NCBI RefSeq assembly: GCF_046533115.1
Contig: NZ_JAJQRC010000002.1
Coordinates: 43,708-107,707 of the forward strand
DNA length: 64,000 nt
Direction of reading: 5' to 3'
Source of the DNA: Treponema sp. TIM-1
GTDB lineage: Bacteria; Spirochaetota; Spirochaetia; Treponematales; Breznakiellaceae
Shown here: positions 218 through 60,664 of the stretch, in pieces
Layout: each line of letters opens with the position of its first letter
Numbering within the stretch: the first letter of the stretch is position 1
The notes under the pieces: generated by a model
Databases searched by the model: none
What the model saw: the letters and a program-made list of their open reading frames with translations, nothing else
What the model was told of the DNA's origin: nothing
Program-made: the position numbers and the translations under genes

Positions 218-426
218 TTCCGGCCACCCCCGGCAAAAGCCCGGGGATTCCCGGAATATTCCCCCTTGATATATTACCCAGGATGTGGTATTTATTAAAA
301 GGAATCTCTCAAAACTTTAGTTTTGGGAGATTCCTTTATTCATGGAAAAAAACGCATTGCGTATGCAAATGCAAGGTCTATCCATAAAGCAACCGACTTT
401 AGGGATAGACAACTAAATAGCGCCAC

Positions 427-463
427 TTTCAAAATCATGGTCCCCGAACACCGGATTTTGAAA
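427..463. promoter_or_regulatory. Inverted repeat TTTCAAAAT-N19-ATTTTGAAA, 20 nt upstream of the MATE gene start
   Basis: It has the same 9-bp core half-site as the 43507 and 51050 palindromes but a longer spacer. Confidence 0.3.
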
Positions 464-482
464 CAGCCTCAGATAATAAGAA

Positions 483-3684: not shown

Positions 3685-4790
3685 TTTTTATCCAACTCAA
3701 AGGAAACCATGGTTGTCCCCCCCCCAATAAAAACCCGGGAATCTTGACGGCCAAGAAATACGGCTTGACTAATAAAGGGCGCTTCAATAATTTTAGTTTC
3801 CGGAAGCCGAATCACCACCAAATTTTTCCGGAATTCAGACTCCGAGGTAATAACAAAGAGAAGACCGTCATCACCACTACCGTCTATGGCATGAATATCC
3901 CCATCCAGGGGTAAAAAAAGACTCTTTCTGGTTTGAATAGTATAGACCCCCAGACCTCCGTTCCGCTCAAACACCACACGGTTGTCGTTATCAATAAAAG
4001 CGATATGTACTTCCCGTCTGAACCCCTGGGGTAAGAATTCATGGTAAATAACCTTATAGGAATCCCCAAACCGTCCTAACAGAAGAAAACGCTGGGGGTC
4101 TATGCCGGAAACCATTGCCAATTTTGAACCGTCCCGGGAGATCCGGCAACCCAGAATCACCGAATACCGGGAACCTCCCGGTTCAAAGGGGGGGAAAACC
4201 AAACGGCCGTTCCCGTCCAAAAGTTCCACCGTGCCGTCCAGGGAACCGGTTACGATAAGACCGGCGGCGGCATCCATATAGGTAAGAGGGGCGGCAAAAT
4301 CATGGGTCCATTGTACGGTCCCGGATTCATCCACCAGAGAGAGGGAAGTCTGTTCATAGTTAATAATGAACACCCGGTTATCCAAAAATTTAGGATAACC
4401 CCGGCTGTTTTTTATGGTTACTATCCGGCTGTTTAGGGGATCCCGGACCTCAATGGATTCAGGCATGGCTTGATATTCCGCCCAGCGGTCTTTTGAGAGG
4501 GATACATATCCCCCCTTAATGCGGTTAAGGGCAAAATTGCCCTGGGAATCAACATAACCAAAACGCCCCCCCAGCTCAAAGGGGATAAGCGGGCCGGTAT
4601 CTTCAAAATCAGGATAATCGGATTCAAGGGATCTTAGCCATTGGGATGTTAAGATAGTTTCTACCGGTATCGGCCGGCCGGCGATAAAAGCATAGAACAT
4701 AAAAAGAAGGAAAACCGCGATAATCCAGTATTTTTGTTTTTTTTTAACCACCCAGGCCCCTTCCGTATGATTTATAAAGGGGTGTTTCAA
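3681..4790 (-). CDS. Hypothetical signal-anchored protein, probably a beta-propeller
   Basis: 369 aa with an N-terminal TM helix. Repetitive beta-rich segments include SLDGTVELLDGNGRLV and ISRDGSKLAMVSG. No recognizable catalytic motif. Translationally coupled to the downstream LytM-like gene. Confidence 0.4.
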   Translation of the reverse strand: MKHPFINHTEGAWVVKKKQKYWIIAVFLLFMFYAFIAGRPIPVETILTSQWLRSLESDYPDFEDTGPLIPFELGGRFGYVDSQGNFALNRIKGGYVSLSKDRWAEYQAMPESIEVRDPLNSRIVTIKNSRGYPKFLDNRVFIINYEQTSLSLVDESGTVQWTHDFAAPLTYMDAAAGLIVTGSLDGTVELLDGNGRLVFPPFEPGGSRYSVILGCRISRDGSKLAMVSGIDPQRFLLLGRFGDSYKVIYHEFLPQGFRREVHIAFIDNDNRVVFERNGGLGVYTIQTRKSLFLPLDGDIHAIDGSGDDGLLFVITSESEFRKNLVVIRLPETKIIEAPFISQAVFLGRQDSRVFIGGGTTMVSFELDKK

Positions 4791-5037
4791 ATTCCAACAT
4801 TTTGAAATACCCCTTTATATATAGTATAGCAGGAGATCCTGTGTCAATCCGCCTCGGCGTATTCCCGCCATTGGGCAGGAGAACTGGAAGGCGAGGTAGT
4901 TTATCAATACCCGCCATGCCGCGGTAGGCTTGGTTAATTGTTCCGATTATCGTTCTGTTTTATGTAATGACTTGACATATTCTGCGGTATAATACAATAC
5001 TTTAACCAGTCTGAAGTTTGCCACAAAAGGAGCGGTA

Positions 5038-5697
5038 ATGATTGATGACGATATATTAACCATAGAAGAGGTGGCCCGGTATTTACGAGTTTCGGAGCGG
5101 ACCGTCTATGATTGGGCACAAAAAGGGGAAATTCCTTCAGGGAAAATAGGGACCGTATGGCGGTTTAAGAAAACGGAGATCGAACAATGGGTAAACGACC
5201 GTTTATCGGCCAATAAATTGAATCCCCAGTTTAATTCTATCCATATCGCCACGGTAATTTCTCCGGATCGGATCATTTTTCTTAATTATTCCACAAAAAA
5301 GGATGCCCTCCTGGCATTGGCGGATAATCTTGCCAATGCCCCCCAGGTAAAAAACCGGCAGGAATTAGCCCAAGAGATCCTAAAGCGGGAAGAACTGATG
5401 AGTACCGCCATGGGCAGGAGTATTGCCATACCCCACGTCCGGTTGTCTTCGGTAACCGATTTGGTTGTTTCCGTGGGGATAAGTCAGACCGATATTATTG
5501 ATTTTCAAACCTTGGATGATGAGCCGGTCCGTCTGATCTTTATGATCGCCGCGGCTTATAACCAGCATGCCTATTATCTCCAGACCCTCTCTTTTTTTAG
5601 TGCCCGCTTGAAAAATCAGGAACTTAGAAATGCCCTGCTGGCGGCAAAAACTCCTGAAGAGGCCTATACCCTTTTGGCGGGGGAGTACAGGACTTAA
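5038..5697 (+). CDS. HTH (excisionase/MerR-like) DNA-binding domain fused to a PTS EIIA (PtsN/fructose-type) domain
   Basis: The N-terminus LTIEEVARYLRVSERTVYDWAQKGEIPSGKIGTVWRFKKTEIEQWV is an HTH_17-type helix-turn-helix. The C-terminus MGRSIAIPHVRL carries the conserved phosphorylatable His of EIIA-Ntr/fructose-type EIIA. Confidence 0.7.
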   Translation: MIDDDILTIEEVARYLRVSERTVYDWAQKGEIPSGKIGTVWRFKKTEIEQWVNDRLSANKLNPQFNSIHIATVISPDRIIFLNYSTKKDALLALADNLANAPQVKNRQELAQEILKREELMSTAMGRSIAIPHVRLSSVTDLVVSVGISQTDIIDFQTLDDEPVRLIFMIAAAYNQHAYYLQTLSFFSARLKNQELRNALLAAKTPEEAYTLLAGEYRT

Positions 5698-19837: not shown

Positions 19838-20877
19838 CGTTTTTTTATACTCCGTAAAAATTTCCGCAGGGACTCAGCAACGGTAAAAAGGCTTTTCCTT
19901 GCCCCTCGGTAAGTATAATCCCAGCTTCCACTCCGGTGGATAATCCGGCCCCCAAAACCGGTCTTAAACCGGTATAGTCCCGCCATGGGATGGGTGGGGT
20001 CCTCCCGGGGAGGGATGCCGTAAAGGTCATATTCCATACAGCCGGCGGCCCGGGCATCCTGCATAGCCCGCCATTGCAGGGCGTAGGGAGCCATAAGATT
20101 CCGCTTTTGATTGGAAGAGGCTCCATAGAGGTAGACCGCCTCAGGGCCCCGGAAGAGCACGATGCTACCGGCGATGGGGACCCCTTCGTGGGAGGCCAGA
20201 TAAAGACGGAACTCCTGGGCGGATTTTTCCCGGGAACAGACAAAAAGGGTCTTATAGTATTCCGGACCGTGGATGGCGATACCGTCCCGTTTTGCCGTTT
20301 CCCGGTAGAGGGCATAAAAAACATCCAGATCCTGCTCGTCCCGGCGATCCACCACGACCCCCTTCTTTGCCGCAAGGCCGATGTTGTAACGCCACTTGGG
20401 TTTCATTCCCCCCAGGAGCTCTTCTTCGGAAGCCGCAAGGCCCATAATCACCGTATCCGGCGGCTGGACATCCATTCCCGCCCGGGAAAAGGGGGGATCT
20501 ATCCGGGGAGGAGCGGTTTCGGCCCCTTCGGTATACCAGGGGGGATCAAAGCGGATAAAAGCCGTATTTCCGGGCAAGAGGGACCGTAAAGCCTGGGCTA
20601 GCTCCTTGAGGGCGCCGTTTCGGGCCCCGTCATCGGTAGGAAAGGCCGGGGGCAGTTCCGGCCCCCAGGGAACATAAGCGAAGGAAAGAGCCGGCGCCAG
20701 GGGCCGCCAGAGGATCAGGAGGGACAGAGCTTCCGCCCCGGCCCAATCCGCCAGAAAAGCCCGGGCCGTCCAACCGAACCGGGCCTTGAAGTCCCCCCAA
20801 AAGTCTGACTGGAGGAAAGAGCCTGCTTTCCCACAGCAGGATAGCTCGGCGGGAATGATACCGCGAAGATATCGCAT
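19834..20877 (-). CDS. FemAB family peptidoglycan bridge-forming aminoacyltransferase
   Basis: LFRGPEAVYLYGASSNQKRNLMAPYALQWRAMQDARAAGCMEYDLYGIP is a FemAB family block. The first 30 codons of the six-frame ORF (to 20967) read through two repeat copies. The probable start is the ATG at 20877, giving MRYLRG... Confidence 0.6.
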   Translation of the reverse strand: MRYLRGIIPAELSCCGKAGSFLQSDFWGDFKARFGWTARAFLADWAGAEALSLLILWRPLAPALSFAYVPWGPELPPAFPTDDGARNGALKELAQALRSLLPGNTAFIRFDPPWYTEGAETAPPRIDPPFSRAGMDVQPPDTVIMGLAASEEELLGGMKPKWRYNIGLAAKKGVVVDRRDEQDLDVFYALYRETAKRDGIAIHGPEYYKTLFVCSREKSAQEFRLYLASHEGVPIAGSIVLFRGPEAVYLYGASSNQKRNLMAPYALQWRAMQDARAAGCMEYDLYGIPPREDPTHPMAGLYRFKTGFGGRIIHRSGSWDYTYRGARKSLFTVAESLRKFLRSIKKR

Positions 20878-32975: not shown

Positions 32976-33051
32976 CTAGTACAATCGTAAATGAACTAGT
33001 ACAATATGTCAATTACTTTTTTTATTTTTTATGCTATTTAGGGACAATTTA

Positions 33052-33063
33052 GGGGACAGAGCT
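33052..33063 (+). repeat. GGGGACAGAGCT repeat copy flanking the transposase (upstream side)
   Basis: Intergenic, about 90 bp upstream of the Y1 transposase ATG. It is preceded by a partial duplicate GGGACA. Confidence 0.75.
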
Positions 33064-33153
33064 TATTAGCTGGAAAAGAAGTCTAAAGTCCGCTTTTTTA
33101 AAAATTTACGATTTCCCGAAGCAATATGAATATGAGATCCATAATAAAGAGTT

Positions 33154-33654
33154 ATGAGACATCCAAGAAAACTTAAGGATAACGCCACTTATCATGTGAC
33201 GGTCCGGGCAAACCGGAGGGAGATGGTTCTTTTTTGTACGGCTATGCGGATTTTGTTCCTCAATGTGGTAAAACGGGCAAAAAAGAAATATAAATTCCAA
33301 ATAGACAATTTTTCTATCATGGGAAATCATGTTCACCTTATTATTCGGCCGGGAAAGGATGAATCCTTATCCCGTATCATGCAATGGATATTAAGTGTCT
33401 TTGCTATGGCATGGAACCGAGCCCACTTTCAGACCGGTCATGTATGGGGAGAACGATTTTTTTCCAAGATCATCAATGATTGTATCGAATTTATCAAAAC
33501 ATTTCATTACATTTCGCAAAATCCGGTAAAGGCCCAATTAGTCAAAAGTCCTGAAGAATGGGAATTTGGAGGACTCTGGCATTTTATTTCAGGGAAAAAA
33601 GAAATAATTGGGGAACCCGCATCATGGATCCAAGAGATATATCGGAATTATTGA
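33154..33654 (+). mobile_element. IS200-like Y1 (HuH) tyrosine transposase, probably a REP-associated RAYT
   Basis: 166 aa with the HuH motif GNHVHLIIRP. The downstream HFQTGHVWGERFF block fits the IS200/RAYT family. The gene is low in GC and is flanked by inverted copies of GGGGACAGAGCT at 33052 and 33681. Confidence 0.6.
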
Positions 33655-33680
33655 GAATATTCTATCCCTGGGATCGTAAA

Positions 33681-33692
33681 CAGCTCTGTCCC
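33681..33692 (-). repeat. GGGACAGAGCTG repeat copy flanking the transposase (downstream side, inverted)
   Basis: 11/12 match, 27 bp after the transposase stop. Confidence 0.65.
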
Positions 33693-33700
33693 TCTAGATA

Positions 33701-39147: not shown

Positions 39148-39464
39148 GCTATTTCCACCCTGCTTTCAAGGTTTGACATGAAGGATTAAAACAATTAATC
39201 TTCATAATAATAAAGATACCATAAAAAAGCGAAAAAAGTCATGACCATGATACAAACGGTCCTCAAAAAAGTAAAATCGATAAAGCCCCCAGTGATACGG
39301 GATTATCGGGTTTTATTGGTAAATTTTCGGCAGAATTTACGACAATTTTTTCCCTTTTTTTATAAAATCAAAGGAAAAAGGTGGCTTTTTTCCATGAATT
39401 TGGGGATTTTTAAATCGAAGGCGGCTTTTTTAAAATTTAATCTTTTGAAAAGGCCTTAAAGATT

Positions 39465-42919: not shown

Positions 42920-43486
42920 TCACACTCCCTGGTATACCTTTAAAGTCAAAACCTCCCCGATGAACATCCGGTGGTAATCCTTCTCCGGGTAATTTTTTTC
43001 GATGGAGGGATCTAAAAAACCGGTAGGATCAAAATCATGGGTATACAATTTACGGCAGACGATAACTTCCGACGCTTCCTTAAAACCGATACCACCGGCG
43101 GCTTTACCTTCTTCAAACACCAGGGGAGTAAGGCCGGTTTCTGCGGCCTTATCCGTATCCCGGCCTGTACGGGACCCGCAGAACTCTAGAGCCTTCCGGT
43201 AGCTTGTGTCGAAAAAACTGAGGCTAAAGAGGGAAGCGGCATTGGCAAAATCAAAGGTATACCGGGTGGGCCGGATAAACATAAAAGCCACATTCCTGCC
43301 CCAAAGCACCCCAAGCCCTCCCCAAGAGGCGGTCATGGTATTCCAGTTATCCTTCCCCTCCTTGAGGTTTCCGGTGGTAATGAGCATCCACCCATCCCCA
43401 ATCCGGGCCGCAGGAGAACCGGGAAATTCCCGAATATCCTTTTCTATCCAGCCCTTATCCGCAGGAATCACCGCTTTCTGGTTCAT
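42920..43486 (-). CDS. Flavin reductase-like (FMN-binding split barrel) protein
   Basis: ITTGNLKEGKDNWNTMTASWGGLG matches the flavin-reductase-like domain. 188 aa. Confidence 0.55.
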   Translation of the reverse strand: MNQKAVIPADKGWIEKDIREFPGSPAARIGDGWMLITTGNLKEGKDNWNTMTASWGGLGVLWGRNVAFMFIRPTRYTFDFANAASLFSLSFFDTSYRKALEFCGSRTGRDTDKAAETGLTPLVFEEGKAAGGIGFKEASEVIVCRKLYTHDFDPTGFLDPSIEKNYPEKDYHRMFIGEVLTLKVYQGV

Positions 43487-43506
43487 ATATCCCCCTTCCC
43501 GTTAGG

Positions 43507-43536
43507 CGGTTTCAAAATGTCAAAATTTTGAAACCG
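43507..43536. promoter_or_regulatory. Perfect palindrome CGGTTTCAAAAT-gtcaaa-ATTTTGAAACCG, 21 nt upstream of the flavin-reductase start
   Basis: 12-bp perfect arms with a 6-nt spacer. A near-identical palindrome sits at 51050-51080. Confidence 0.5.
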
Positions 43537-43542
43537 ATTCCA

Positions 43543-45135
43543 TTATATCCCTAAAATCTCGCTATAGGCATCCAGGGCGGAATCCCCGGAATTTCCCCCG
43601 GCCTTAGCAGCCAGGACCTTTTTGGTGAGGACCTTTCCCAACTGTACCCCTTCCTGATCAAAACTGTTGATATTCCAGACAAAACCCTGGAACATAACCT
43701 TATTTTCAAAATGGGCAAGGAGGGCTCCCAATGCCTGGGGGGTAAGACGTTTACCGTAGATAAGACTGGAGGGACGCCCCCCAAGGAATTCCTTGTTCCG
43801 GTTCGAGTCGGTCTTACCCTTGGCAAAGGCAACTATCTGAGCCGCCAGGTTCGCCTTAAGTTTAGTCTGACTCACGGATCCATCCACTTCCACATCATCC
43901 CCCCGCTGACTTTCGATAAAACCCACAAACTGCAGAGGCACAACATCCGTCCCCTGATGGAGAAGCTGATAAAAAGAATGTTGACCGTTGGTACCGGGTT
44001 CTCCAAAAACCACGGGGCCGGTGGAATAGGCCAGAGGAAGGCCCTCCCGGTTAACCCCCTTGCCGTTGGACTCCATATCAAGCTGCTGGAGATGGGCGGG
44101 GAACCGGGAAAGGGCCTGGCTATAGGGGAGGACGGCCGTATAGGGGTACCCCAGAAAATTCCGCTCCCACACTCCGATAAGGGCATCCAACAGGGCGGCA
44201 TTGGCAAGGACCTTCGGTTCCAAGGCGTTTTTATCCGCCTTATGGGCGCCGGCGAGGAGTTCCTTAAACACTTTCGGCCCAAAGGCCAAGGAAAGGATGA
44301 CCCCTCCCACCGCGGAGGTAGAAGAATACCGGCCGCCGATAAAATCGTCGATGTAAAATGAATCCAGGTATGCGGGGTTATGGGCCAGCGGACTGGTTTC
44401 ACTGGTTACCGCCACCATATGTTTACTGGGATCCAGCCCCGCTTTGGTGAGTTTATCCTTGACGAAAAGCTCGTTTGCCAGAGTCTCCTGGGTGGTACCG
44501 CTTTTAGAAACCAGAACAAAGATGGTCTCTTCCAGGGTACAGCGGGCAACTATCTGGGAGGCGTCATCGGGATCCACATTGGAGATGAACTTCGCCTGTA
44601 AATGTCCCTTCCCCTCTGCGGCGGCCCAGTTTTCCAGGGCAAGGTACAGAGCCCGGGGACCCAAATCCGATCCGCCTATACCGATCTGCACCGCCGTGGT
44701 AAAGGCCTTTCCCGTGGAACCCCGGATTTTACCGGCATGGACCGCGTCGGCAAAGGCGGAAAACCGGTCAAGTTCATGGGCGTAAAATTCCCCCAGGTTC
44801 TTCCCTTCATGTAAAACCGGTTTTCCCAATTGCCCCCGAAGCAGATGGTGGAGGACCTTCCGGTTTTCTCCGGTATTCATCGTTTCCCCGTCAATCAACG
44901 CCTGGTACTTCTCTATAAGCTCCTGCTCATCCGCCAGGGCCTGGAGAGCCTCTATCACGGGATCGTCCACCGCTTTTGCGGCCCAGGAATAGGTGAACCC
45001 CGCGGCCAGGGGAACCACCGCCTTTCTTACCCGTTCCGCGGTAAGTTGGGATACAAAATCAAACCCCTTCCCCCGGGGCACAAGATCCAAAAGTCGCTTA
45101 TAAGCGGTAAGCTTATCAAAATTGTTATATTTCAT
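43543..45135 (-). CDS. pgi: Glucose-6-phosphate isomerase
   Basis: 530 aa. The N-terminus MKYNNFDKLTAYKRL...  and the SIS domain blocks match the PGI family throughout. Confidence 0.9.
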   Translation of the reverse strand: MKYNNFDKLTAYKRLLDLVPRGKGFDFVSQLTAERVRKAVVPLAAGFTYSWAAKAVDDPVIEALQALADEQELIEKYQALIDGETMNTGENRKVLHHLLRGQLGKPVLHEGKNLGEFYAHELDRFSAFADAVHAGKIRGSTGKAFTTAVQIGIGGSDLGPRALYLALENWAAAEGKGHLQAKFISNVDPDDASQIVARCTLEETIFVLVSKSGTTQETLANELFVKDKLTKAGLDPSKHMVAVTSETSPLAHNPAYLDSFYIDDFIGGRYSSTSAVGGVILSLAFGPKVFKELLAGAHKADKNALEPKVLANAALLDALIGVWERNFLGYPYTAVLPYSQALSRFPAHLQQLDMESNGKGVNREGLPLAYSTGPVVFGEPGTNGQHSFYQLLHQGTDVVPLQFVGFIESQRGDDVEVDGSVSQTKLKANLAAQIVAFAKGKTDSNRNKEFLGGRPSSLIYGKRLTPQALGALLAHFENKVMFQGFVWNINSFDQEGVQLGKVLTKKVLAAKAGGNSGDSALDAYSEILGI

Positions 45136-45150
45136 AATCCATTCTCTCCA

Positions 45151-45624
45151 TTAATCTTCCAGTTCAGGAATACTTTCCTTCATCCGGCGTATAAAATCCT
45201 CTCCGGTTATACCTTCCCGGAGGCATACAAAAACCGTATTGTCCCTTCCCGCGATGGTTCCCAGCACATCGTCCAGGCTTAAGTTATCCACCGCCAGTGC
45301 AACCGAATCGGAATGACCCGAATAGGTTTTGATCACCACCATATTTCCGGACCATTCGATAGAAACATACCCCCGAAGAAAATCATGGATATAGGTCCGT
45401 TCGGTCTCTTGCCGCTCATCTTCTCCGGGCAGGGAATACACATACCCGTTATGACCATCGGAGATCTTACCTACCTTGAGGAGTTTTAAATCCCGGGAAA
45501 GGGTTGCCTGGGTAACAATAAATCCTTCTTTTTGCAAATGTCCCAAAAGTGTTTCTTGAGACTCAATTCGATAGGTCTTTATCAATTTACGGACAGTTTT
45601 TAAACGAGCCAACCGTTCCTTCAC
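45151..45624 (-). CDS. argR: Arginine repressor
   Basis: The winged HTH is [28 protein letters not shown]. The C-terminal oligomerization domain has GTIAGDD. 157 aa. Confidence 0.85.
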   Translation of the reverse strand: [157 protein letters not shown]

Positions 45625-45715
45625 AATTACTCCATATTACTCGGGGGCTAATTAAACCGTTTTCAAAATTGGCTGTTTGTCACCGGCCCAATTACGAATA
45701 ATTATCCTCCATCCT

Positions 45716-45729
45716 TGCATAAATATACA
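45716..45729. promoter_or_regulatory. Candidate ARG box (ArgR operator) upstream of argR
   Basis: TGCATAAATATACA is a near-palindrome resembling the TGCATAAATATGCA / TGAATwwwwATTCA-type ARG box. It lies about 92 bp upstream of the argR start. A second weaker half-site-like TGCAAGTAT sits at 45745. Confidence 0.35.
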
Positions 45730-45893
45730 ATGGCAAGATACTTTTTGCAAGTATTTTTTTAACACGCTTAATCCCCGCATATCCACGATCTAAACTCCCT
45801 TAATCCTGGGTAAAATATCCTGCCATATCCTATAATTATAACTATAGAAGATCTTGCCGATATTATGGTAGGAATATTCGGAGCATAAAACTA

Positions 45894-48044: not shown

Positions 48045-48665
48045 ATGATATGCGGTATTGATGAAGCGGGCCGGGGGCCCTTGGCCGGCCCGGTCTGCGC
48101 CGCCGCGGTGATCCTCCCCGAAGATTTTCCCCGGGATGTCCTGGGGGATTCAAAAAAACTTAGCCCCCGGCAGCGGGAAGAGGCCATGAAAATCATCTAT
48201 CGGGGGGCCTTCGCCTGGGGCATCGGCTGGGCATCGGCTTTTGAGATCGACCGCATTAATATCCTTAAGGCGAGCCTCCTGGCCATGAAGCGGGCCTTTG
48301 AGGAGTTGGCCGCCGCTTCCCTGGCCGCACTCCCCCCCGGGCTCAGCGCCATTGTAGACGGCCTTTACGTACCGGATATCCCCCTCCCCTGCCGGGCCTT
48401 GGTCAAAGCCGACGCCCAAGTCCCCGAGGTTATGGCCGCCTCGATCCTCGCCAAAACCGCCCGGGATCGGATGATGGAACGGTATTCCTGGCTTTATCCC
48501 GACTACGGTTATGACCGGCATAAAGGCTATCCCACTCAGGACCACCTAAAAAGAATCGCCATCCATGGGCCGTCCCCTATCCAGCGCCGGAGTTTCAGGG
48601 TTAAACCGATCCAGCTACCCCTCTTTAATCATCCCGATCAGGATGGGGGCCCTCAGGACGGATAG
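48045..48665 (+). CDS. rnhB: Ribonuclease HII
   Basis: MICGIDEAGRGPLAGPV with the DEAGRG catalytic motif, and DSKKLS. Confidence 0.9.
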   Translation: MICGIDEAGRGPLAGPVCAAAVILPEDFPRDVLGDSKKLSPRQREEAMKIIYRGAFAWGIGWASAFEIDRINILKASLLAMKRAFEELAAASLAALPPGLSAIVDGLYVPDIPLPCRALVKADAQVPEVMAASILAKTARDRMMERYSWLYPDYGYDRHKGYPTQDHLKRIAIHGPSPIQRRSFRVKPIQLPLFNHPDQDGGPQDG

Positions 48666-49092
48666 CCCTAACGGAGCGGGGCTTCCGGGGGCCCGGTTTG
48701 GCGGCGCCGGTCTTGTTTTTTGCCTTCCCGGTTTTAAGCAGTACCCGTTTTCCCTTTTCCTGCGGGGCCTTCCCTCCCCGCTCAGGCCGCAGGAAGCGGG
48801 GATCCCCTTTTTCCCGGTCCCGATTCTCCTGAGGTTTTCGGTGTTCCCCCCGGTTCTTTTCCCGAAAGGCCTTTTCCAATACCTTGAGGGCTTCGTCAAA
48901 ACCCTGGAGAAATTCGGGAAGGTCTTCGGCAAAAAAGATCACCGATTGGCGTTCAAAGCCTCCGGAGTCCCGGTTTTTGCTTTCCACGATGTTGAGGTAG
49001 AGATCCCCCAGGCGGTTTTCTTTTACATTAAAAAAGTAGGTTCTATTTTGTAAAGAAACCTTGGTTGAAAACAATTCTCCCCGTATCCCCAT
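48625..49092 (-). CDS. DUF3276 (bacterial Pur-alpha-like) nucleic-acid-binding protein with a Lys/Arg-rich tail
   Basis: FSTKVSLQNRTYFFNVKENRLGDLYLNIVESK...QSVIFFAEDLPEFLQGFDEAL matches the DUF3276/PUR repeat. The C-terminal 60 aa are K/R/P-rich. The 3' end overlaps the rnhB 3' end by 41 bp. Confidence 0.6.
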   Translation of the reverse strand: MGIRGELFSTKVSLQNRTYFFNVKENRLGDLYLNIVESKNRDSGGFERQSVIFFAEDLPEFLQGFDEALKVLEKAFREKNRGEHRKPQENRDREKGDPRFLRPERGGKAPQEKGKRVLLKTGKAKNKTGAAKPGPRKPRSVRAIRPEGPHPDRDD

Positions 49093-49104: not shown

Positions 49105-51024
49105 TTAATTTCCGGCTTGATCCGCCCGGGTAACCAGGTGCCGCTGCCATTCGATAAGGTCCCGTTCCATCCGTTTATCCGAGCCTTCCACATCCGCCAT
49201 GATTCGGAAAACCGGTTCCGTACCGGAACCCCGCATCCAGATACAGGCCGGGACATGGCCGGTTTTGGTGGAAAAAAGGATCTTTAAGCCCCCCCGGCCG
49301 GCATCGCCGAAGCGGGAAAGTCCCCGTTTTTCCTCCATTCCTACAAAGGCGGTGGCGCTCCACCCGGTGATACCGTAACGGGCGTTAAAGTAATCCTTTC
49401 GTTCCTCCCATTCCTGGAGAAAAAATTCCTGGTACCGGTTTTTGAGGAGCCCGTGATCGACGGTTTTGATCCGCAGTAACGCCTCCGGGGTATAGGAACC
49501 GGTGGTGATAAAGGGAGGGAGGGCGGCGATAATATCCGCCAGGGTAAAATCAGGATGGTATACCTCGGCTTGATCCGACAGATCACACCAGAGTTCAAAA
49601 AAGCCCTTCCGTTCCCCTTCGCTCCGGATGGTAAGGAGTTTTACCAGGGCCAACACCGTATTAATGGGATCCCGTACCGCCGAAGGATGGGTAATATTAC
49701 CCCCGGCGGATCCTTCCCCCAGGATCCGTACCAGATATCCCTGTTCCCGGAGCTTCCGGGCCAGGCCAACCACATTAGCCTCCCCCACTTCGGCCCGGAA
49801 AACCGACACGTCAAAGGCCTTGGCAATCCGATCCACCCGCATGGAGGTAGGGCCGTTCACCGCAATAGCCGCTTTTCGCAGGGCGTTTCCCTTATTATCA
49901 AACTGAAGTTCGCCGGTCCAAACCAGGTGGGCCAATTCGGAAACACAGGCCAGGGCGAAAACTTCCTGGGCTTCCAGGGCCCGGGCCCGTCCCTGGGTTT
50001 CGTCCCAGAAAACCAGATTTCCCCGGTCCCCGTCACAATCCGGCACATAGCCGATAACCACCCCGGGATTCTCCCGGTGGAGTTGCTCCACAAACTGCCG
50101 GCAGGGTTCCAGGGATTCCCCCTCGGGGACGATACGGTGGGCGATTTCCCGGGGTTTTTGAAACATTCCGTAAAAACCCAGCCCCAGGGAAGTAAGAAAT
50201 TCCCGGTCTATAGATAAGGTCCGGGCGGATCCGTTAAAATCCGCCGCCACCCCCAGGAAATGGTTCCGTAAACTTCGGGTCATAACCTCAAAAAGGGAGC
50301 TTTCCCCGGCATTTTCGGTTCCTCCGGTAAGTTCCCGGGTAAAGGAGAGATACGCCCCATAGGCTTCGGCTTTGATCTCCTGAAGGCCTAAATACACCTG
50401 GGTGAGTTCCGGAATATTCCCATACCCCACCCAGGAAACCGCCTGGGGTATAACCTGGGGATCCGCCATCCGGGCCCGGAACGCTTCAATCAGGAGCAGC
50501 GCCTCCGGTGCGGGGAGAACCCCCCCATCGGTAAGACCGAATTTAAGACCGTTATGCCCTATGGGGTTATGGCTGGCGGAGATATATACAAACCCCTGGG
50601 CTTTGCCGGTCCGGGCATAGGCCATGATCTCCGGGGCAGCGATGATAAAGGCGAACCGTACCCCGCAGCCCTGTGCCAAAAAGGTCCGGATCATCGGATC
50701 CGCTATGGCCGGTCCCGTGGGTCTTGAGTCCATTCCGACTATTACCTGGGGATGTTCCAGGCCCGTTTTTTGTTTAAGATATTCCGCAAAGATCCCGGCC
50801 GCAATACTGGCTATAACCCCATGGACCGGACTTATTTCTTCTCCGGGGCTCTCCTCATCGCCGTTTTTCGCGAAGATCCCCCGCCACCCCGATGCCGAAA
50901 GGATCATTTTATCCAGCACTTCATCCAAACGGGTCTTGGTCAAAGCCGGATCATCCCCTTTGAAGGGAAGTACCGCAGGATCGGCAATAAAAAGTCCCGA
51001 ATCAGGATGCCGTATTAACGCCAT
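49105..51024 (-). CDS. Phosphoglucomutase/phosphomannomutase family protein (long form)
   Basis: The active-site Ser motif is SASHNPIGHNGLKF, with Mg-binding DCDGDR. 639 aa. Confidence 0.85.
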   Translation of the reverse strand: MALIRHPDSGLFIADPAVLPFKGDDPALTKTRLDEVLDKMILSASGWRGIFAKNGDEESPGEEISPVHGVIASIAAGIFAEYLKQKTGLEHPQVIVGMDSRPTGPAIADPMIRTFLAQGCGVRFAFIIAAPEIMAYARTGKAQGFVYISASHNPIGHNGLKFGLTDGGVLPAPEALLLIEAFRARMADPQVIPQAVSWVGYGNIPELTQVYLGLQEIKAEAYGAYLSFTRELTGGTENAGESSLFEVMTRSLRNHFLGVAADFNGSARTLSIDREFLTSLGLGFYGMFQKPREIAHRIVPEGESLEPCRQFVEQLHRENPGVVIGYVPDCDGDRGNLVFWDETQGRARALEAQEVFALACVSELAHLVWTGELQFDNKGNALRKAAIAVNGPTSMRVDRIAKAFDVSVFRAEVGEANVVGLARKLREQGYLVRILGEGSAGGNITHPSAVRDPINTVLALVKLLTIRSEGERKGFFELWCDLSDQAEVYHPDFTLADIIAALPPFITTGSYTPEALLRIKTVDHGLLKNRYQEFFLQEWEERKDYFNARYGITGWSATAFVGMEEKRGLSRFGDAGRGGLKILFSTKTGHVPACIWMRGSGTEPVFRIMADVEGSDKRMERDLIEWQRHLVTRADQAGN

Positions 51025-51049
51025 AGGGCAAACTCCTTGTTACCAGAGG

Positions 51050-51080
51050 CGGTTTCAAAAAAATCTAATTTTTGAAACCG
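51050..51080. promoter_or_regulatory. Perfect palindrome CGGTTTCAAAAA-aatctaa-TTTTTGAAACCG, 25 nt upstream of the phosphoglucomutase start
   Basis: 12-bp perfect arms. It differs from the 43507 copy only at the innermost position and in spacer length (7 nt). Confidence 0.5.
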
Positions 51081-51178
51081 GTTCAATATAAAAACCCATA
51101 AGGGGGAAAATAGTATACTGGTTTTTGAATTCTATTGCTATAGCCAACGGCAGCTCCGGACGAGGGGGGATATATTAC

Positions 51179-51207
51179 TTGACAGGGATTTCTCCCCTGT
51201 TTATACT
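51179..51207 (+). promoter_or_regulatory. Candidate sigma70 promoter TTGACA-N17-TATACT for the aroF leader
   Basis: TTGACA at 51179-51184, a 17-nt spacer, and TATACT at 51202-51207. It lies in the divergent intergenic region between the phosphoglucomutase gene and aroF. Confidence 0.5.
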
Positions 51208-51228
51208 CCCCTATCATAAGGAAACAAG

Positions 51229-51363
51229 GTGTTTAATTCCGCGGCTTACAAGATATTCTTTATCACCGGTTGCAAGGCCGGTTTTTCTCTTTCCTCCTAT
51301 TACTATTATTATTACCGGTCTTTATGTCCCGCGGAGCCGATAGGTTTTAGGTTAAAAACCTAA
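51229..51363 (+). CDS. Candidate leader peptide (44 aa) with six consecutive Tyr codons
   Basis: AAGGA RBS at 51218-22, 6 nt, then GTG at 51229. Translation is MFNSAAYKIFFITGCKAGFSLSSYYYYYYRSLCPAEPIGFRLKT* with TAT TAC TAT TAT TAT TAC at 51298-51315. The stop codon lies inside a hairpin. It sits upstream of DAHP synthase and prephenate dehydrogenase. Confidence 0.35.
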   Translation: MFNSAAYKIFFITGCKAGFSLSSYYYYYYRSLCPAEPIGFRLKT

Positions 51364-60260: not shown

Positions 60261-60298
60261 GCCGCCTGATACGCAAGTCGTATCAGGCGGCTTTTTTT
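60261..60298 (+). terminator. Strong plus-strand intrinsic terminator-like hairpin with no annotated upstream plus-strand gene
   Basis: GCCGCCTGATAC-gcaagtc-GTATCAGGCGGC is a perfect 12-bp stem followed by TTTTTTT. It begins 10 nt from the helicase start codon on the opposite strand. Confidence 0.55.
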
Positions 60299-60664
60299 CG
60301 GTGTTTTTTTTGAAATTTTTTAATTATTTTTCAAAAAAAACGAGATTTTTTTTGAAAGGTATGATACAGTCTTTAGTATACCCTTTAAAGGGAATGATAC
60401 GGGCTGCCGGGCATGTTACAAAGCAAACTACCTGCGGCCGTCAAGTATATCGGGGCTCTGAAAAGAGGGACCCCGGGGTAGCGCCCATACCTAGCAAGTA
60501 AAACGCTGCCGCCGGGGCTGCACTAACGCACTGTTGATTATAGCCGAGCCCGGCAATAATAACAATGCGCCAGTCCTCTTTTTATCCCCCGGCGTGGGGT
60601 TACTCCTGCGCCGGGGACACCCGGGATTTGTCCCGGGTGTATATATTTTATGAAGGAGGACTCT

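Follow-up and report, generated by a model that had tools for sequence, protein, structure and literature searches.

The two perfect palindromes that stand upstream of a flavin-reductase-like gene and a PGM-like gene in the window (the whole stretch of 64,000 nucleotides that was analysed) are probably recent copies of a short hairpin repeat of the interspersed kind, both from a single subfamily (GGCGGTTTCAAAAW...), and the repeat itself is best read as a new REP/MITE-like family dispersed through the intergenic DNA of one termite-gut Treponema lineage. This reading, taken as a whole, is assigned a probability of about 0.7. The finding is real, and it is ordinary in kind.

Copy B (43507-43536, minus strand) reads CGGTTTCAAAAT-gtcaaa-ATTTTGAAACCG and is a perfect 12-N6-12 palindrome, with 12-bp arms and a 6-nt loop; copy C (51050-51080, minus strand) reads CGGTTTCAAAAA-aatctaa-TTTTTGAAACCG and is a perfect 12-N7-12 palindrome, with arms of the same length and a 7-nt loop. 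Both sequences are exactly as given in the preliminary description of this DNA, and its statement that the pair lies far beyond chance is borne out by the counts: the core GTTTCAAAA-N3-12-TTTTGAAAC is matched twice in the window, compared to 0.00 matches expected from 100 dinucleotide-preserving shuffles, and the looser pattern TTTCAAA-N4-14-TTTGAAA is matched three times, compared to 0.03 expected. The arms of B and C are identical at 11 of 12 bases, and a GGCG flank is common to both copies.

The flavin-reductase-like gene (42920-43486, minus strand; PF01613) has its ATG at 43486, about 20 nt from copy B, and its upstream neighbour is pgi (43543-45135, minus strand), the pgi stop codon (43543-43545) being separated from that ATG by a spacer of 56 nt, in which copy B lies. 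Since the flavin-reductase gene follows pgi by only 15-20 nt in relatives that have no hairpin, the spacer at site B is operon-internal. The PGM-like gene (49105-51024, minus strand; PF02878/PF02880) has its ATG at 51024, about 25 nt from copy C, and an AAGGAG ribosome-binding site lies between the two, with copy C about 10 nt upstream of it.

The preliminary description had placed both palindromes between a likely promoter and the ribosome-binding site of a minus-strand gene. The location upstream of minus-strand genes is correct, but the promoter part of the statement calls for correction. The TATAAT at site B overlaps the pgi stop codon, and is made up of the last bases of the pgi coding sequence and the first base of the insertion. 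At site C the hexamer resembling a -10 element that adjoins the hairpin is also present in L120 (sequences used for comparison carry L numbers), which has no hairpin, and a promoter-like TAGCAA-N17-TATACT (51112-51140, minus strand) is found about 30 nt further upstream. The same hexamers with the same spacing occur in T. primitia (L121), and TAGTAA-N17-TATACT occurs in the hairpin-less L120. Judged from this sequence agreement, TAGCAA-N17-TATACT is probably the real PGM promoter, in which case copy C would lie inside a 5' UTR of about 80 nt. Both copies are probably transcribed as stable stem-loops with predicted folding energies of about -13 kcal/mol, copy C in a 5' UTR and copy B between two cistrons.

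The palindromes are not alone in the window. A third inverted repeat (4775-4816) was obtained with the looser pattern and a fourth (422-468) with a mismatch-tolerant scan, and a covariance model, R1, was built on 26 family members (alignment A1). At E<0.01 this model identifies seven sites in the 64-kb window (302-333, 422-468, 4780-4812, 39423-39455, 43505-43538, 51048-51082 and 60324-60362), all of them intergenic, four of them outside the training set, and five of them additional to the pair already described. Copies B (39.7 bits) and C (35 bits) are members of the training set. The genes next to the seven sites encode a MatE transporter, a hypothetical membrane protein, a Metallophos phosphoesterase, the flavin reductase, the PGM and a helicase, which are functionally unrelated.

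Copy A (4775-4816, minus strand; GGGGTATTTCAAAAT-loop-ATTTGAAACACCCC) is imperfect, folds at -16.3 kcal/mol and scores 27 bits (E 4e-5) from outside the training set; it lies 4 nt downstream of TTGACA-N18-TATATA, and some 23 nt separate it from the probable GTG start codon (4751) of the downstream gene, which encodes the hypothetical membrane protein. The family member at 298-337 (plus strand), upstream of the MatE gene, has a compensated 18-bp stem, TCTCTCAAAAC/GTTTTGGGAGA, which folds at -24 kcal/mol (z -7.2); it scores 36 bits as a training-set member, and begins 3-4 nt past TTGATA-N17-TATTTA (266-294). The same spacer holds a member of a long-loop subfamily (422-468, plus strand), composed of CTTTCAAAAT, a 19-nt loop and ATTTTGAAAC followed by AGCCTC, which lies 15-18 nt upstream of the MatE ATG (483) and was detected from outside the training set (E 0.003). 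A degenerate copy at 39423-39455 (plus strand; GGCTTTTTTAAAAT-loop-TTTTGAAAAGGCC), also outside the training set (26.7 bits, E 5e-5), folds at -12.8 kcal/mol and lies 10 nt upstream of the Metallophos ATG (39465). The site at 60324-60362 (TTTTCAAAAAAAA-loop-TTTTTTTTGAAAG), within the divergent spacer that precedes the helicase gene (start 60251), is a weak possible member whose membership is uncertain, as its 19.2 bits (E 0.008) come from A/T-rich, low-complexity sequence. Between the two repeat copies upstream of MatE there is another hairpin, GTCTATCCATAAAG...CTTTAGGGATAGAC (376-410, plus strand), which is spanned by a possible 24-codon ORF (ATG 344); because its GTCTATCCATA also follows the composite form of the repeat in L062 (about 2816-2830), this hairpin may be a further module of the mosaic.

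The family keeps base pairing rather than sequence, and loop length is free. The gap between TTTCAAA and TTTGAAA is 9, 10 and 11 nt in three window copies, loops range from 6 to 24 nt across the family, and the stems change in compensating pairs such as GTTTCAAAA/TTTTGAAAC, GTTCCAAAA/TTTTGGAAC, TTTCCCAAAA/TTTTGGGAAA, ATTCCAAAA/TTTTGGAAT and TCTCTCAAAA/TTTTGGGAGA. In alignment A1, 92 % of cells pair, compared to at most 57 % when the partner column is slid, and both sides have changed in 8 of the 14 pairs; there are 41 doubly changed cells, compared to 11.4 ± 2.8 in shuffles (a count reached in 0 of 500), for sequences that were pre-selected with a pairing filter. Folded as RNA, the window copies have predicted energies of -13 to -24 kcal/mol, with z from -3.3 to -7.2 for well-formed copies (copy B: -13.2 kcal/mol, z -4.7; copy C: -13.7 kcal/mol, z -6.8), and the Shine-Dalgarno sequences are left unpaired. 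G-T wobbles, compared between the strands as a sign of selection on the RNA, occur on either of them (window 4780 and L231 hairpin 1 on one, window 302 and 39423 on the other). On the side facing the gene, the flank (A/C)GCCTC is conserved, including where it is unpaired.

Copies occur singly and also as part of a composite unit of about 130 nt, in which hairpin 1, with a CCGGTTGG-type centre (CGGTT-type loop), is followed by a terminator-like hairpin with an A-tract and a T-tract, then by the linker TAAATCTAAGGTTGCT and by hairpin 2, whose loop is of the CTGAAG type and whose end is AGCCTC(GGTT). The composite is repeated at many unrelated loci of termite-gut Treponema MAGs, and was found by blastn in L016, L019, L021, L042, L051, L062, L095, L119, L230, L231 and L232. 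The internal sequence of the long-loop subfamily, CATGATCCTGCCGGA..., is likewise common to window 422-468, L119 21-70 and L062 (about 2905-2945), and the sharing of loops between different loci and genomes points to copying from common templates rather than to independent evolution.

A comparison of orthologous sites in relatives whose flanking genes are 81-94 % identical to those of the window demonstrates that copies have been gained, lost, swapped or decayed between these genomes. Upstream of PGM, the window and L119 (94 % orthologue) have near-identical flanks (GGGTTTTTATATTG... and ...TAACAAGGAGTTTGCCCTATG), between which the window carries its CGG short-loop hairpin and L119 carries, at the same place, a long-loop ATTTC variant consisting of ATTTCAAAACC, a 19-nt loop and GGGTTTTGAAAT; the loop at this site is thus 7 nt in the window and about 19-24 nt in L119, depending on where the arm boundary is drawn. 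In L120 (87 %) the same flanks are joined directly with no hairpin, and the repeat is absent from this place in the more distant T. primitia (L121), which has an unrelated G+C hairpin there, and in Breznakiella (L122), which has none. The spacer between pgi and the flavin-reductase gene measures 56 nt in the window, copy B included. It has no hairpin in L230 (92 %), where it is 15 nt long, or in L232 (81 %), where it is 20 nt long, and in L231 (85 %) it reaches 142 nt, with two variant hairpins around a terminator-like hairpin. Upstream of the Metallophos gene, L230 and L231 hold the full composite and the window holds only a degenerate second hairpin. In the 5' UTR of argR there is a decayed copy at about 45645-45690, which is deleted in L232, and an additional composite precedes argR, in L231 only. 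The signs of a target-site duplication are ambiguous: TAA stands on both sides of the insertion at the pgi site, whether single (window) or composite (L231), and the empty sites carry one TAA; no clean target-site duplication is visible at the PGM site.

Because the element is missing from the orthologous sites of close relatives, neither the PGM gene nor the flavin-reductase gene needs the hairpin, and a repeat that comes and goes between sister genomes is not a regulator-binding site shared by the two genes. The preliminary description had proposed looking for conservation upstream of orthologues and for a common function among the downstream genes. The first is lacking in L120, L121 and L122 for PGM and in L230 and L232 for the flavin reductase, and the second is contradicted by a set of neighbours that includes MatE, Metallophos, helicase and tRNA genes, among others. 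Its alternative suggestion of a conserved 5'-UTR stem-loop holds with respect to structure and likely transcription, but not with respect to conservation at these genes. Copies B and C are probably young members of one subfamily, because they share their arms and flank, are undecayed, and occupy sites that are empty or different in relatives of 92-94 % identity.

Within the sequences searched, the repeat is concentrated in the termite-gut lineage to which the window belongs. For the PGM-like protein of the window no exact match is on record; it has 94 % identity to proteins of termite-gut Spirochaetaceae MAGs, and 66-69 % to the corresponding proteins of Breznakiella homolactica and Treponema primitia ZAS-2. 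A scan with the 18-base core over one genome per species gave at least 118 loci; at least 19 of them, among the matches listed, are from termite-gut Treponema or Spirochaetaceae MAGs, and most of the other listed matches resemble unrelated long hairpins or terminators. Model R1 finds about 10 copies in 61 kb of five close relatives; applied to T. primitia and Breznakiella (44 kb), it gives no match at E<0.01 and a single weak one at E 0.017. A metagenome scan with a 20-base core gave 107 loci, mostly unrelated hairpins or terminators. About a dozen of these carry the extra flank GAGCC...GGCTC, and several of the GAGCC-flanked cores lie 20-45 nt upstream of the ATGs of genes that have no relation to one another (DUF47, alcohol dehydrogenase, flhG, hemA and ihf). 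The ClpB encoded on L169, a contig of this type, shares 85 % identity with its Desulfatiglans anilini counterpart, so the core is not confined to spirochaetes; the GAGCC-type contigs are not enriched in extra copies (one weak match in 63 kb), and the repeat reading does not account for the GAGCC-flanked copies in the Desulfatiglans-like contig. The window has no gathering-level match in Rfam 15. A literature search for strings of the arm sequence gave no relevant paper, and searches for REP-like repeats of spirochaetes gave only general reviews, with no description of the family, and we conclude that it is previously undescribed, as far as the searchable literature shows.

No copy lies inside a credible coding sequence, and the placement of copies relative to genes is not even. 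Of 38 copies, at least 16 have a start codon or the 5' end of a tRNA no more than about 35 nt away, as judged from gene calls on MAGs that are crude. By the ORF map of the window, copies occupy four of about eight divergent spacers, two tandem spacers and none of about nine convergent spacers, the convergent spacers being very short. In five window copies the stem starts 3-7 nt past a hexamer resembling a -10 element. Those that precede the copies at 4775 (TTGACA-N18-TATATA) and 298 (TTGATA-N17-TATTTA) belong to good sigma-70-type promoter sequences, which would put the start of transcription at the base of the hairpin; the other cases, at sites B and C, are less convincing as promoters. The preliminary description had set its reading against that of a larger dispersed repeat lacking positional bias relative to gene starts; the motif does belong to a dispersed repeat with larger composites, but a bias towards gene starts exists. 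Such a bias is unusual for REPs, and could mean that copies are retained for a function.

The family resembles REP and BIME elements in that it consists of multi-copy, extragenic palindromes of 30-40 nt in which stem pairing is kept as sequence drifts, in the differing copy content of close genomes, in the occurrence of single copies or modular clusters with conserved linkers, and in its plausible co-transcription as RNA hairpins. The REP superfamilies reviewed by Di Nocera et al. 2013 (PMC3733652) have hairpins tagged on one side with a conserved GTAG or CGTC, whereas neither tetranucleotide stands beside the stem in any of the 28 aligned copies of the present family, whose flanks are GAGGCT/GAGCC... 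and ...AGCCTC and whose stems are rich in A/T near the loop. It is also usual for intergenic stem-loops and families of repeats to cluster at the 3' ends of genes (PMC1590033), whereas this family favours the 5' side of genes and divergent spacers over 3' ends and convergent spacers. A Y1 (RAYT-like) gene flanked by GTTTCAAAA hairpins was not found in the 64-kb window or in about 200 kb from relatives.

The likeness to MITEs lies in insertion polymorphism, with three orthologous sites showing empty, single, variant and composite states. The arms GAGGCTGTTTCAAAAC and GTTTTGAAACAGCCTC could be abutting terminal inverted repeats, and the long-loop subfamily holds a conserved internal sequence of 19-24 nt. 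A gene bracketed by solo arms (GAGGCTGTTTCAAAA), a parent element or a cognate transposase was not found in about 270 kb of Treponema-clade sequence. The Correia/NEMIS elements of Neisseria, together with ERIC, BOX and RUP, are small MITE-like repeats that are co-transcribed with neighbouring genes. The present family is like them in its modularity, its location near gene starts, its presence/absence polymorphism (between strains, in their case) and its predicted formation of RNA hairpins of a kind able to change mRNA processing or stability; it differs in being far shorter, with a minimal unit of two arms and a 6-9-nt loop, and in having no clear target-site duplication. NEMIS and ERIC are among the small repeats mentioned in PMC1590033.

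The reading that the preliminary description had favoured, in which the palindromes are operators through which one uncharacterised dimeric transcription factor controls PGM, flavin reductase and further genes together, is by now largely refuted, and we regard it as extremely unlikely. The perfect dyad symmetry, the arms of about 12 bp with 11 of 12 positions identical, and the location of both copies near promoters, between a hexamer resembling a -10 element and a ribosome-binding site, do recall the operators of CRP/FNR, Rex and LacI-type regulators, but the centre-to-centre spacing of the half-sites differs between B and C (18 as against 19 bp), and the loops of the family vary far more widely; the stem bases co-vary rather than being fixed, the many copies adjoin unrelated genes, and the site is absent upstream of orthologues that are 87-92 % identical. 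Comparison by eye with ArgR (argR adjoins pgi), CodY, ECF-type TGAAAC-N16-CGT and sigma-54 motifs, and of TTGAAA with a -35 element, gave misfits of spacing or of the downstream element. A boxA/nut-like reading of the CTCTGGTAACAA that follows copy C was rejected on the grounds that TAACAAGGAG also occurs in the hairpin-less L120, as was pairing of the CCUC flank with the Shine-Dalgarno sequence, for which the registers do not match and which the folds, with their free Shine-Dalgarno sequences, do not show. The only resemblance to CRISPR repeats is to CRISPR-DR21 and DR5 at E 1.9-6.8, with 16 bits as against gathering thresholds of 40-48, and the copies are solitary. A very improbable alternative, that of an unconventional (bidirectional) transcription terminator or insulator hairpin, could draw on the start of copy B 7 nt past the pgi stop codon, on the two L119 copies (8825 and 8904) that lie in a convergent spacer, and on the canonical terminator hairpin with A-tract and T-tract inside the composite. 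The stems of B and C are A/U-rich near the loop, however, and lack a 3' U-run, and a terminator scan called neither; the divergent spacers that hold copies A, C and 39423 offer no preceding gene on the strand in question, and in L016, L062 and L095 a separate canonical terminator precedes the hairpin.

Several features do count against a simple repeat, namely the positional bias, the conserved flank, the GAGCC cores outside spirochaetes, the ambiguous target-site duplications and the failure to find a mobilising enzyme, and the (A/C)GCCTC flank together with the Desulfatiglans-like cores hints at a sequence-specific partner rather than a purely selfish element. A rival reading is that of a portable 5'-UTR RNA module, in which the hairpin and its 3' flank, UUUUGAAAC-MGCCUC, are recognised by a specific nuclease or RNA-binding protein, or else serve to stabilise or insulate the 5' terminus, and in which copies are kept upstream of start codons because they tune the expression of many genes. 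In accord with such a module are the copies near start codons and tRNA 5' ends, the hexamer 3-5 nt before the stem in four window copies, with a predicted start at the hairpin base where TTGACA-N18-TATATA or TTGATA-N17-TATTTA precedes it, the conserved gene-proximal MGCCTC, the same oriented motif upstream of ATGs in non-spirochaete contigs, and the strong compensatory change. It is nonetheless unlikely, since the element is absent from orthologous sites of close relatives, decayed copies exist, the orientation of the loop relative to the downstream gene is not constant (L016 as against L070), G-T wobbles are not confined to the sense strand, and the TATAAT of site B is the end of the pgi coding sequence. 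Its extension across phyla, in which the hairpin and the oriented flank UUUUGAAAC-(A/C)G(C/G)CUC form a sequence-specific 5'-UTR module in termite-gut Treponema and in Desulfatiglans-like Desulfobacterota, is also unlikely, and draws mainly on the flank that is conserved even when unpaired and on the cores outside spirochaetes. If it were true, the module would be recognised by a conserved RNA-binding protein, nuclease or HUH-type enzyme, the 5' ends of many mRNAs and pre-tRNAs would be defined or protected by it, and it would amount to a naturally mobile expression 'insulator' cassette, sometimes with its own terminator.

Under the preferred reading, that of an interspersed hairpin repeat, the copies would have spread by DNA-level copying or transposition with a putative enzyme, and insertion may favour A/T-rich, TATA-like sequence; a landing preference of this kind would explain the placement of copies just after hexamers resembling -10 elements and before ribosome-binding sites. 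Copy C, carried in the PGM 5' UTR, and copy B, carried in the intercistronic spacer from pgi to the flavin-reductase gene, would each form a modelled RNA stem-loop that leaves the Shine-Dalgarno sequence free, and their likeliest effect would be a modest one on mRNA stability or processing, not specific to any gene. Such a stem-loop could serve as a barrier to 5' or 3' exonucleases, and copy B may disturb the termination of pgi 7 nt upstream. Coordinated regulation of both genes by the hairpin would not be expected.

The practical consequence is that a false regulon call is avoided, with PGM and flavin reductase not linked by a shared operator, and that a repeat family is documented in a poorly studied, largely uncultured spirochaete lineage. 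The filled and empty alleles are natural material for testing small hairpin insertions beside ribosome-binding sites. Only the 5'-side bias, the hairpin-terminator-hairpin modularity and the occurrence of the same core in Desulfobacterota go beyond the ordinary.

Some other features of the window deserve mention. The 11-mer GGGACAGAGCT (usually GGGGACAGAGCT) occurs 14 times in 64 kb, compared to about 0.03 expected, at 20721, 20879, 20911, 21027, 23721, 26600, 26742, 32233, 33053, 33682, 34642, 41256, 42151 and 42197. Since 12 of the 14 lie in coding sequence, where every reading frame and either strand is represented, the 11-mer is a word of the DNA and not a peptide motif. Several occurrences are conserved at orthologous coding positions in L230, one is found in Breznakiella (L122) and none in T. 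primitia (L121). The word could be DNA-uptake-like, or it could be a repeat that arose from the termini of the Y1 transposase element nearby. The gene of that element, Y1_Tnp (IS200-like; 33154-33654, plus strand; PF01797, E 5e-15), is the window's only Y1 transposase gene and has flanks (33040-33065 and 33655-33700) that form inverted repeats, each with GGGAYAGA/GGGGACAGAGCT, and these fit the GGGGWSAS motif reported for 'TIRYT' tyrosine transposases (PMC3733652). L230 has the Y1 gene in synteny, and L231 has a GntR gene in its place. The left flank of the Y1 gene in the window also includes a degenerate version of the composite's middle module, the terminator-like hairpin. A link between this transposase and the hairpin family was rejected, as the flanks of the Y1 gene carry a different repeat.

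Upstream of the DAHP synthase gene (51476), the region 51179-51290 (plus strand) contains a strong promoter-like TTGACA-17-TATACT, a short leader and a terminator-like hairpin with a T-run (51265-51282). It is a candidate attenuator or leader for aromatic amino-acid biosynthesis, and has no Rfam match. A conserved block at 45625-45760 (minus strand), upstream of argR (45151-45624), holds ARG-box-like palindromes (TTGCAAAAAGTATC... and GGATAATTATTCG), which suggests autoregulation of an argR-pgi-flavin-reductase operon. A strong plus-strand intrinsic terminator at 60262-60300, GGCCGCCTGATAC...GTATCAGGCGGC followed by TTTTTTT, starts about 10 nt beyond the minus-strand helicase start codon (60251), where there is no plus-strand gene; an antisense or small RNA is possible, as is a misplaced helicase start codon. 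A DUF3276 (PF11680) gene (48625-49092, minus strand) always follows the PGM-like gene, in the window, L119, L120, T. primitia and Breznakiella, and the NCBI name of the PGM-like protein, 'phosphatidylglycerol lysyltransferase', does not fit its Pfam domains. The gene at 5038-5697 (plus strand) encodes an excisionase-type HTH_17 domain fused to PTS EIIA-2, an unusual regulator architecture that is also present in Breznakiella (L122 2531-3196), beside the same cluster of hypothetical, TP_0781 and methyltransferase genes.
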